Origin: a virus
Lineage: Monodnaviria; Loebvirae; Hofneiviricota; Faserviricetes; Tubulavirales
Strand: one strand, 5' to 3'
DNA: 9,067 nt
Virus record (IMG/VR): IMGVR_UViG_2660238346_000022
The notes under the pieces are model-generated. The model had not been told where the DNA came from. It saw only the letters and a list, made by a program, of their open reading frames with translations, and did not search any database. A program made the position numbers and the translations under genes. Within the stretch, counting starts at the first letter, position 1. The number at the start of each line of letters is the position of its first letter. Positions 6,904 to 7,611 of this stretch are shown piece after piece.

Positions 6904-6960
6904 TTCCGCTTCCTCGATCACTCGCTCACTGCGTTCGGTCGCCGGATCTGCGGCGAGCGG
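6904..6960. promoter_or_regulatory. ColE1/pMB1 primosome-assembly-site-like element, copy 1 (candidate single-strand initiation signal)
   Basis: TTCCGCTTCCTCGatCACTCGCTCACTgcGtTCGGTCGccggatCTGCGGCGAGCGG. First 13 and last 13 bases are identical to the pBR322/pUC segment TTCCGCTTCCTCGCTCACTGACTCGCTGCGCTCGGTCGTTCGGCTGCGGCGAGCGG (recalled from memory), middle about 70%. Confidence 0.45.
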
Positions 6961-7215
6961 TACCACCACACGCGAAGATGAAGCATTCTGCCTGTCTGTT
7001 CATCCATCAGACCTGCCAGTCCGGCAGGCAGGTGCAGTCCATGAAAACAAAGCGCGGATTAAGCTGCGGTGCACACTACAGGGGAGCACGCTGTCAGCCA
7101 TCAGTTTCATCAACAGGCAACATCATCGCCTGTACGCGTCGGGTTCTGCACAGCCAGTAAGCTGGTTGACCATGTCAGCAAAGAGCATAAGTGCCCGGGG
7201 CCGGTAATGGTGCCT

Positions 7216-7272
7216 TTCCGCTTCCTCGACCACTCGCTCACTACGTTCGGTCGCTGGGTCTGCGGCGAGCGG
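7216..7272. promoter_or_regulatory. ColE1 primosome-assembly-site-like element, copy 2
   Basis: Same element at the start of repeat copy B. Confidence 0.45.
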
Positions 7273-7554
7273 TGCCATCACAAGCGCAACTGAAGCATTC
7301 TGCCTCTCTGTTCATCCGTCAGACCTGCCAGTCCGGCAGGCAGGTGCAGTCCATGGAAACAAAGCACGGATTAAGCTGCGGTGCACACTACAGGGGAGCA
7401 CGCTGTCAGCCATCAGTTTCATCAACAGGCAACACCATCGCCTGTACGCGTCGTGTTCTGCACAGCCAGTAAGCTGGTTGACCATGTCAGCAAAGAGCAT
7501 AAGTGCCCGAAGCAGGCAGCAGAGCGTAAGTGCCCGGGGCCGGTAATGGTGCCT

Positions 7555-7611
7555 TTCCGCTTCCTCGACCACTCGCTCACTACGTTCGGTCGCTGGGTCT
7601 GCGGCGAGCGG
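7555..7611. promoter_or_regulatory. ColE1 primosome-assembly-site-like element, copy 3
   Basis: The partial third repeat copy consists of exactly this element and ends at its last base. Confidence 0.45.

Follow-up and report, generated by a model that had tools for sequence, protein, structure and literature searches.

What does a tandem array of repeats do in a filamentous phage, between the genes for its assembly ATPase and its secretin, when every repeat is headed by a short sequence resembling a segment next to the replication origin of ColE1-type plasmids? We addressed this question in a stretch of 9,067 nt (the whole of the DNA analysed, hereafter the window) and in related inoviruses and plasmids.

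Genomic setting

The window holds a filamentous-phage (inovirus) genome of ~8468 bp and runs beyond its full length. Bases 1-368 are repeated at 8469-8836 with two mismatches, after which a 1-nt indel follows, and this indel suggests a tandem prophage rather than a plain wrapped circle. Tandem prophage copies are likewise contained in the relatives L001 and L021. The minus strand carries all large genes, and the repeat array is located between zot/gene I and a broken secretin/gene IV gene:

375-734, minus strand: gene VI-like ORF
734-2098, minus strand: gene III-like coat protein
3181-5283, minus strand: P2 gpA-type replication endonuclease
6635-6865, minus strand: 5' remnant of the secretin gene (gene IV-like, hofQ), found by blastn and tblastn against the hofQ/secretin of L001; downstream neighbour of the array, intact in relatives
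7625-8827, minus strand: zot / gene I-like assembly ATPase (Pfam PF05707, E 1.8e-9); upstream neighbour of the array on the coding strand

Several other features of this phage copy are visible around these genes. A 145-bp unit derived from the secretin gene's 5' end, with a length not divisible by three, occurs four times in tandem (6264-6850 and 6061-6263), and the absence of ~0.9 kb of the gene (L001 7944-8849) leaves no intact secretin. Tandem repeats of 39/78 nt and 15/30 nt at 1230-1481 encode, on the minus strand, Gly/Ser-rich linkers of the gene III-like coat protein, which are ordinary among inoviruses. L001, a prophage that is 97-98% identical elsewhere, lacks the segment 5187-5806 (N-terminus of the replication protein plus small ORFs upstream of it), which is a variable regulatory or immunity module.

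Layout of the repeat array

The array consists of two units of 312 and 339 bp and a truncated third, each headed by a 57-nt core (starting at 6904, 7216 and 7555). Repeat search and TRF recovered a 312-nt period over 6904-7509 with 94% identity, while in the pairwise alignment of units 1 and 2, 296 of 312 positions agree and a single 27-nt indel explains the different unit lengths. The pattern TTCCGCTTCCTCG-N28-36-CTGCGGCGAGCGG occurs at exactly three sites (6904-6960, 7216-7272, 7555-7611) and in none of 200 shuffles. These results bear out the first-pass annotation in describing repeats headed by a 57-bp element in three copies. The core is indeed common to all three, but their shared head is longer than was then thought, namely 91 nt (starts 6870, 7182 and 7521; repeat family D6). 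The parts of the array are as follows:

6870-6960, minus strand: extended ssi element 1, with a degenerate CGTTAAGTGC motif (6873-6882), a ~21-nt spacer and the core (D6, 74% to the reference copy)
6904-6960, minus strand: core copy 1, PAS/ssiA-like (pattern match; covariance model R1 72.7 bits, E 3e-18; 49/58 identical to the pMB1 core)
6961-7181, no strand: body 1, a non-coding spacer with short hairpins CTGCCagtccGGCAG (7013-7027), ACAGGC..GCCTGT (7113-7133) and CCAGtaagCTGG (7154-7165)
7182-7272, minus strand: extended ssi element 2, with GCATAAGTGC (7185-7194), spacer and core (D6 reference copy)
7216-7272, minus strand: core copy 2, PAS/ssiA-like (pattern match; covariance model 78 bits, E 8e-20; 47/57 identical to pMB1)
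7273-7520, no strand: body 2, the spacer of body 1 with a 27-nt internal duplication
7521-7611, minus strand: extended ssi element 3, with GCGTAAGTGC (7524-7533), spacer and core (D6, 99%)
7555-7611, minus strand: core copy 3, PAS/ssiA-like (pattern and covariance-model match; identical to copy 2), heading the truncated third unit

The flanking motif recurs once more at 7497-7506, within the 27-nt duplication to which unit 2 owes its length of 339 nt. In its proposed active sense, core copy 1 reads 5'-CCGCTCGCC...GAGGAAGCGGAA-3' on the minus strand. The sequence of copy 2 recurs identically in L001, L009, L016 and L020, and copy 3 begins 13 nt past the zot stop codon on the coding strand. The array as a whole is probably the product of recombination between cores.

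Homology to the ColE1/pMB1 ssiA element

Judged by alignment, the core is a true homologue of the ssiA (n'-pas) element of ColE1/pMB1, a phiX174-type primosome assembly site at which these and many small enterobacterial plasmids begin lagging-strand synthesis. The first-pass annotation had likened it to the segment adjacent to the pBR322/pUC origin, and this likeness stands over the full element: phage cores share 47-49 of 57 positions (~82%) with the pMB1 core, spread over its whole length, and the similarity is confined neither to the ends nor to GC runs. Searches against plasmids by BLAST returned E-values of 1e-17 to 3e-21, with at least 5000 matching plasmid records. Closer than pMB1 are small natural plasmids, among them a RepL/MobA plasmid (~85% over 106 nt) and plasmids of Escherichia albertii (97% to the phage core over ~70 nt). 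Plasmid homology continues ~32-35 nt past the core to a GCGTAAGTGC / GCGTNAGTGC motif, so that the element measures ~92 nt. We rejected a low-complexity coincidence on account of the full-length match and the plasmid E-values, and vector contamination because ~10 of 57 positions differ from pMB1 and the cores recur in complete chromosomes and plasmids.

The pMB1 origin sequence used as query proved 100% identical to several records of the plasmid collection; in one of these, the plus strand holds both RNAI (884-988) and the core (260-315). The pMB1 core thus lies ~570 nt before RNAI, on the RNAI strand. Given this position relative to RNAI and an RNA II of ~555 nt, it falls ~120-175 nt past the RNA/DNA switch. 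For the exact assignment of n'-pas to the pMB1 segment and for the role of GAAGCGG, we partly rely on the literature of 1980-82. In pUC-type origins, ssiA has been described as a lagging-strand primosome assembly site (PAS) placed past the RNA/DNA switch (PMC3167613), and ssi hairpins of the same kind are present in ColE1-like and pHW126-like/pIGRK-type plasmids (PMC5935869, PMC6854812, 10.1101/2022.12.05.519187).

Among the IMG/VR contigs outside the inoviruses, L012, L019, L166, L197 and L243 (14-85 kb) carry 1-3 class-A cores without RNAI or Zot and may be phage-plasmids or misclassified plasmids. Among the INPHARED phages, the core matched short records of plasmid or vector type; with the entire window as query, megablast found no match in this collection, where the best Zot relatives are at most 35% identical. 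A Zot-profile scan of genome contigs found no relative either.

Distribution and position among inoviruses

The simplest arrangement is found in L007, L008, L016, L020 and L021, where the spacer between zot and the secretin gene measures 111-118 nt and nearly all of it is one motif-plus-core element. More elaborate versions follow the formula PAS-(body-PAS)n with n = 1-2 in the window, L001, L009 and L013, and the L003 lineage has three units; even among near-identical phages, core copy number varies from 1 to 3. Because a single core nearly fills the ~112-nt gap in the simpler relatives, the functional, selected unit is the core and not the body. The emphasis that the first-pass annotation had placed on the 312-bp unit was therefore misplaced: what is conserved is the core, and most relatives have one core without any body.

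Between lineages, the core is 56/57 identical (98%) where Zot, Rep and secretin are only 49-58% identical. A third lineage, L169, with a different Rep, has motif and core in its main intergenic region and not between zot and the secretin gene. Across 79 Zot-bearing viral loci, our covariance model detected the core in three enterobacterial inovirus lineages only, whereas it was absent from the other ~66. The core is therefore a lineage-specific acquisition of a few enterobacterial inovirus lineages, probably derived from plasmids and perhaps gained more than once, and the phages at the other loci manage without it.

A Citrobacter IncHI1B/IncFIB plasmid (L001, OV141394) carries near-identical prophages in tandem, and others reside in E. 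coli chromosomes (L020, L021). For the distant lineage (Zot 49-55% identical), the carriers are a Proteus IncC plasmid and again E. coli chromosomes (L003, L015, L017, L269). L003 corresponds to NZ_ON390810, an IncC tet(X4) plasmid. Prophages residing in large conjugative resistance plasmids (L001, L003) could spread by conjugation as well as by infection.

Two further genes of these prophages deserve mention. An IS110-family ("RNA-guided") transposase gene adjoins the replication endonuclease gene at one prophage end (L020 14390-15355, L003 17486-18448, L269 28088-29041) and is missing from the window phage. The core as an attachment site for this IS110-type recombinase was considered and rejected, the cores not being at prophage ends. 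A TraX-like F-pilin acetylase is encoded between zot and the PAS array in L003 (10171-10932), L269 (20759-21520) and L015 (3168-4007); such cargo is unusual in a filamentous phage, and this one may make use of conjugative pili.

A conserved hairpin

From viral and genome contigs we collected 35 distinct cores and a few more whose ends vary, and the covariation set comprised the 25 that are phage-like (class A). Folding energies of the cores, on both strands, and of the whole unit were no better than those of shuffles. Energy being uninformative, structure was assessed by covariation. The 25 distinct class A cores form a long imperfect hairpin in which 88-90% of cells pair. Changes on both sides affect 8 of its 15 pairs, and its covariation score of 0.226 compares with 0.11-0.13 in shuffles (0/500 reach 0.226) and at most 0.11 in slid controls.

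Stem I (CCGCTTCC/GGCGAGCGG, i.e. CCGCT.CC/GG.AGCGG) contains GAAGCGG and shows two independent compensatory variants, CTGCT/AGCAG and ACGCT/AGCGT. Stem II is variable yet always complementary, with all five pairs covarying and variants as different as ACC/GGT, TTTAT/ATAAA, GTCAT/ATGAC, CTCAT/ATGAG and CCTGT/ACAGG. The window itself holds one compensatory pair in this stem, GATC/GATC in copy 1 versus GACC/GGTC in copy 2, and the GTTTAT/ATAAAC form (TTTAT/ATAAA) is restricted to phages (L008, L021, L029), where pairing is kept. At the apex, A-T is replaced by G-C in 9/25 sequences without a single unpaired case; both bases of this pair are the sole difference between L002 and L072.

Other searches for structure were negative. 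Wobble asymmetry (G-T versus A-C, 8 versus 7) did not identify the structured strand, and Rfam 15 gave no match at gathering scores in the window nor at E <=1 in 6200-7700. Matches of a loose central pattern (TCGCTCRC-N-GYTCGGTC) in viral contigs were mostly due to chance, with a handful of true variants among the matches listed.

Strand and orientation

In ColE1 replication, RNAI is opposite in sense to RNA II, to the nascent leading strand and to the parental strand that is displaced. The TTCCGC strand of the core (TTCCGCTTCC) coincides with the RNAI strand in 15 of 15 ColE1 replicons with an Rfam RNAI, the core lying ~480-640 nt before RNAI. From this uniform orientation it follows that the single-stranded lagging-strand template reads ...GAGGAAGCGGAA, the GAAGCGG sense. 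In the phages, GAGGAAGCGGAA is on the minus strand in all three copies of the window, and the GAAGCGG sense is that of the gene strand at every inovirus locus examined (the window, at least 12 relatives, the L003 lineage and L169). Matches of the covariance model, in model orientation, are always on the strand opposite to zot.

To our knowledge, all characterised inoviruses package the coding-sense strand. T-richness is typical of packaged strands of ssDNA phages, and the coding (minus) strand of the window is T-rich, with 30.6% T overall and 39% T versus 15% A at third codon positions. Based on inovirus biology and this composition, the coding strand is presumably the packaged one.

Proposed role as a complementary-strand origin

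Homologous to the plasmid element and conserved in structure, position and strand, the core would fit a role as an origin of complementary-strand synthesis at which the PriA primosome enters the packaged plus strand, as in phiX174. We consider this reading reasonably probable, with origin function and PriA dependence proposed by analogy. The first-pass annotation had suggested such an origin, and whatever in its interpretation was open to computation agreed with expectation. Against the reading count the unremarkable folding energies of the core, the wobble counts that favour neither strand and the absence of the core from the other ~66 Zot-bearing loci sampled. The phage would package the coding strand. 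Both upon entry and whenever rolling-circle replication displaces a plus strand, the 57-nt core would fold into the long imperfect hairpin composed of stem I, the variable stem II and the small apical pair, measuring ~92 nt together with the flanking GCACTTACGC motif. PriA might then recognise the hairpin on SSB-coated DNA, as it would the plasmid element, whereupon PriB, DnaT and DnaC would load DnaB and DnaG would prime. In this way, as in phiX174, the replicative form could be made from ssDNA with no need of RNA polymerase. The ancestral state would be one core filling the gap between zot and the secretin gene, from which the window's PAS-(spacer-PAS)x2 would be an expansion. An Ff-type origin may be present elsewhere in the genome, e.g. 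in 5283-6263.

All characterised filamentous phages known to us prime the complementary strand with host RNA polymerase, and entry through the PriA primosome is a hallmark of phiX174 and ColE1-type plasmids. If the proposal is true, these prophages represent a natural inovirus family that instead has a PAS of the plasmid type, with its position, strand and structure all conserved, and single-strand initiation signals would be interchangeable modules traded between plasmids and ssDNA phages. The prophages would further be predicted to depend on PriA, PriB and DnaT, a host-factor vulnerability of elements frequently met in E. coli, Citrobacter and Proteus and also found on IncC and IncHI resistance plasmids. 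Annotation would also be corrected, as the array is now either unannotated or labelled "hypothetical protein". While the element itself belongs to the known ssiA/n'-pas family, a full-text search for filamentous phages together with primosome assembly sites found no relevant description, and the inovirus context is new as far as this search shows.

Comparison with known systems

The closest counterpart is the ssiA/n'-pas of ColE1, pMB1 and p15A, with which the phage core has in common the 13-nt ends, the hairpin, GAAGCGG and the flanking GCGTNAGTGC motif. In the plasmids the element is on the strand that becomes single-stranded, and in the phage this is presumably so too. The plasmids replicate by the theta mode, whereas the carrier here is a filamentous phage; unlike ColE1 ssiA, the phage element has neither an RNAI/RNAII origin nor a DnaA box nearby and is tandemly multiplied with a spacer of ~220-250 nt.

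With the complementary-strand origin of phiX174, the phage core would share its role. There, too, an intergenic spacer has GAAGCGG together with an AGCGG/CCGCT stem, both on the viral strand; in phiX174 this is the F-G spacer, where the n' site was mapped. However, there is no homology past the short motif, the stem arms are reversed in order, and phiX174 belongs to the Microviridae. The minus-strand origin of Ff phages (M13/f1/fd) likewise primes the complementary strand from hairpins on the plus strand, as we propose for the phage element. It does so with host RNA polymerase at two promoter-mimicking hairpins, which lie in the main intergenic region by the packaging signal and the plus origin. 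In contrast, the phage element is without promoter-like hexamers in a consensus scan, is situated between homologues of gene I and gene IV and has PriA-site homology.

An engineered counterpart of our proposal seems to exist in constructs of the Nomura and Ray type, reportedly M13 phages with a deleted minus origin that carry cloned plasmid ssi signals, i.e. filamentous phages in which a ColE1 PAS drives complementary-strand synthesis. Those are artificial, whereas the phage element would be natural, with a fixed and conserved arrangement. Finally, the ssi of pHW126, pIGRK and pIGMS31 is of the same palindromic class and is located upstream of the replication module (PMC6854812; 10.1101/2022.12.05.519187), and our best plasmid matches are small Mob/Rep plasmids of this general kind. 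It differs in being non-essential, its deletion mainly leading to multimerisation and a change in copy number.

The spacer and alternative explanations

Four other explanations were weighed, and each is weaker than a complementary-strand origin because of the points that stand against it. The first is that the core is passenger DNA, picked up from small plasmids without any role in replication and multiplied by neutral unequal crossing-over. The up to 97% identity between phage and plasmid cores, the restriction to just three enterobacterial lineages among the 79 loci sampled and the fluctuation between one and three copies in near-identical phages would all agree with this. Nevertheless, we regard it as unlikely: neutral cargo would hardly keep the same position and orientation at every locus of three lineages, fill the whole spacer in the simplest genomes, preserve its hairpin by compensatory changes in phage-specific variants and stay 98% conserved where the flanking proteins have diverged to 49-58% identity.

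The second explanation shifts the weight to the body, a spacer of ~220-250 nt. PAS and spacer together would be a mobile or selfish cassette that passes from one inovirus to another, unrelated one and amplifies in tandem, and the spacer would carry the real function, be it packaging, a second priming signal or a regulatory RNA. Whole units are ~89-92% identical between lineages with 49% Zot identity, and bodies are found at 4-30 places per genome in the few E. coli genomes that contain them. Moreover, ~52 nt of body 2 (7397-7448) have a match in L271, another inovirus prophage, in intergenic DNA that adjoins a dif-like site, and the sequence after the third unit in the L003 lineage also matches at this locus. 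On the other hand, the body is absent from most relatives; among 5426 complete E. coli genomes only 9 had it, and besides them only 2 plasmids, in every case within one of these prophages. The high place counts of the body-bearing lineage, at many chromosomal sites per genome, follow from the presence of several prophage copies, every one with three units. RNAalifold indicated no convincing conserved structure in the body, and no RNA-family signal was seen in it. A consensus scan of 6850-7640, a weak test, detected no promoter-like site on either strand, and the sole terminator-like site (7608-7623) is on the plus, non-coding strand, fewer sites being found than in shuffles. This explanation is thus quite improbable. 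Equally doubtful to us is the variant in which PAS and spacer form a mobile "complementary-strand origin cassette" that is exchanged among unrelated inoviruses and plasmids and multiplies in tandem. Its arrays might favour replication, as origin duplications do in defective interfering miniphages, or titrate PriA and thereby perturb host replication restart or hairpin-sensing defences.

Still less likely is that the hairpin acts at the RNA level, as a stabiliser, processing site or translational attenuator in a polycistronic zot-secretin mRNA, rather than as DNA. The GAAGCGG-sense hairpin is on the coding strand and hence transcribed, the GCACTTACGC motif ends ~14 nt before the secretin start codon, and covariation fits RNA and single-stranded DNA alike. 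Against this, the coding strand shows no U-tract or terminator signal, no Rfam family matches, and the L169 copy is not placed between zot and the secretin gene. The plasmid homologues, too, have no such genes around them, and the literature documents them as initiation sites on single-stranded DNA (PMC3167613, PMC6854812).

That the repeats encode a protein is barely credible, although ORFs of 93-107 aa are present and one is annotated in OV141394, for no Pfam family matches, 1- and 4-nt indels truncate or shift the ORFs in other copies, and the N-terminus of the longest is merely the translated PAS core common to plasmids. The candidate reading frames are:

6879-7160, plus strand: 93-aa ORF
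7191-7472, plus strand: 93-aa ORF
7312-7635, minus strand: 107-aa ORF, annotated as "hypothetical protein" in OV141394 and judged not to be a gene

The 107-aa frame is open in one of the two window units (52 aa in unit 1) and broken to 61 aa in L015, and ORF lengths vary between copies and loci in general. With reading frames preserved neither between copies nor among relatives, indels that are not multiples of three and no family match, the repeats are, from their sequence, non-coding. The first-pass annotation had favoured the same verdict, which holds; its premise that no frame is open across a unit was inaccurate, as the frames above exist, but right to the extent that none is preserved among the copies.

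Paired dif-like sites

Beyond the array, at 5981-6074, a perfect 14-bp GC hairpin is enclosed by two dif-like sites in inverted orientation (AGTGCGCACAATGACGTTATGTATAAAA and, reverse-complemented, TTTTCAACATAACGCGTGTCACATTATGCGCACT); we name these sites by comparison with the E. coli dif sequence. The inverted pair with its hairpin looks like a folded single-strand attP of the CTXphi type for XerCD. Paired dif-like sites are also present at L169 9440-9537 and L001 16456-16515.
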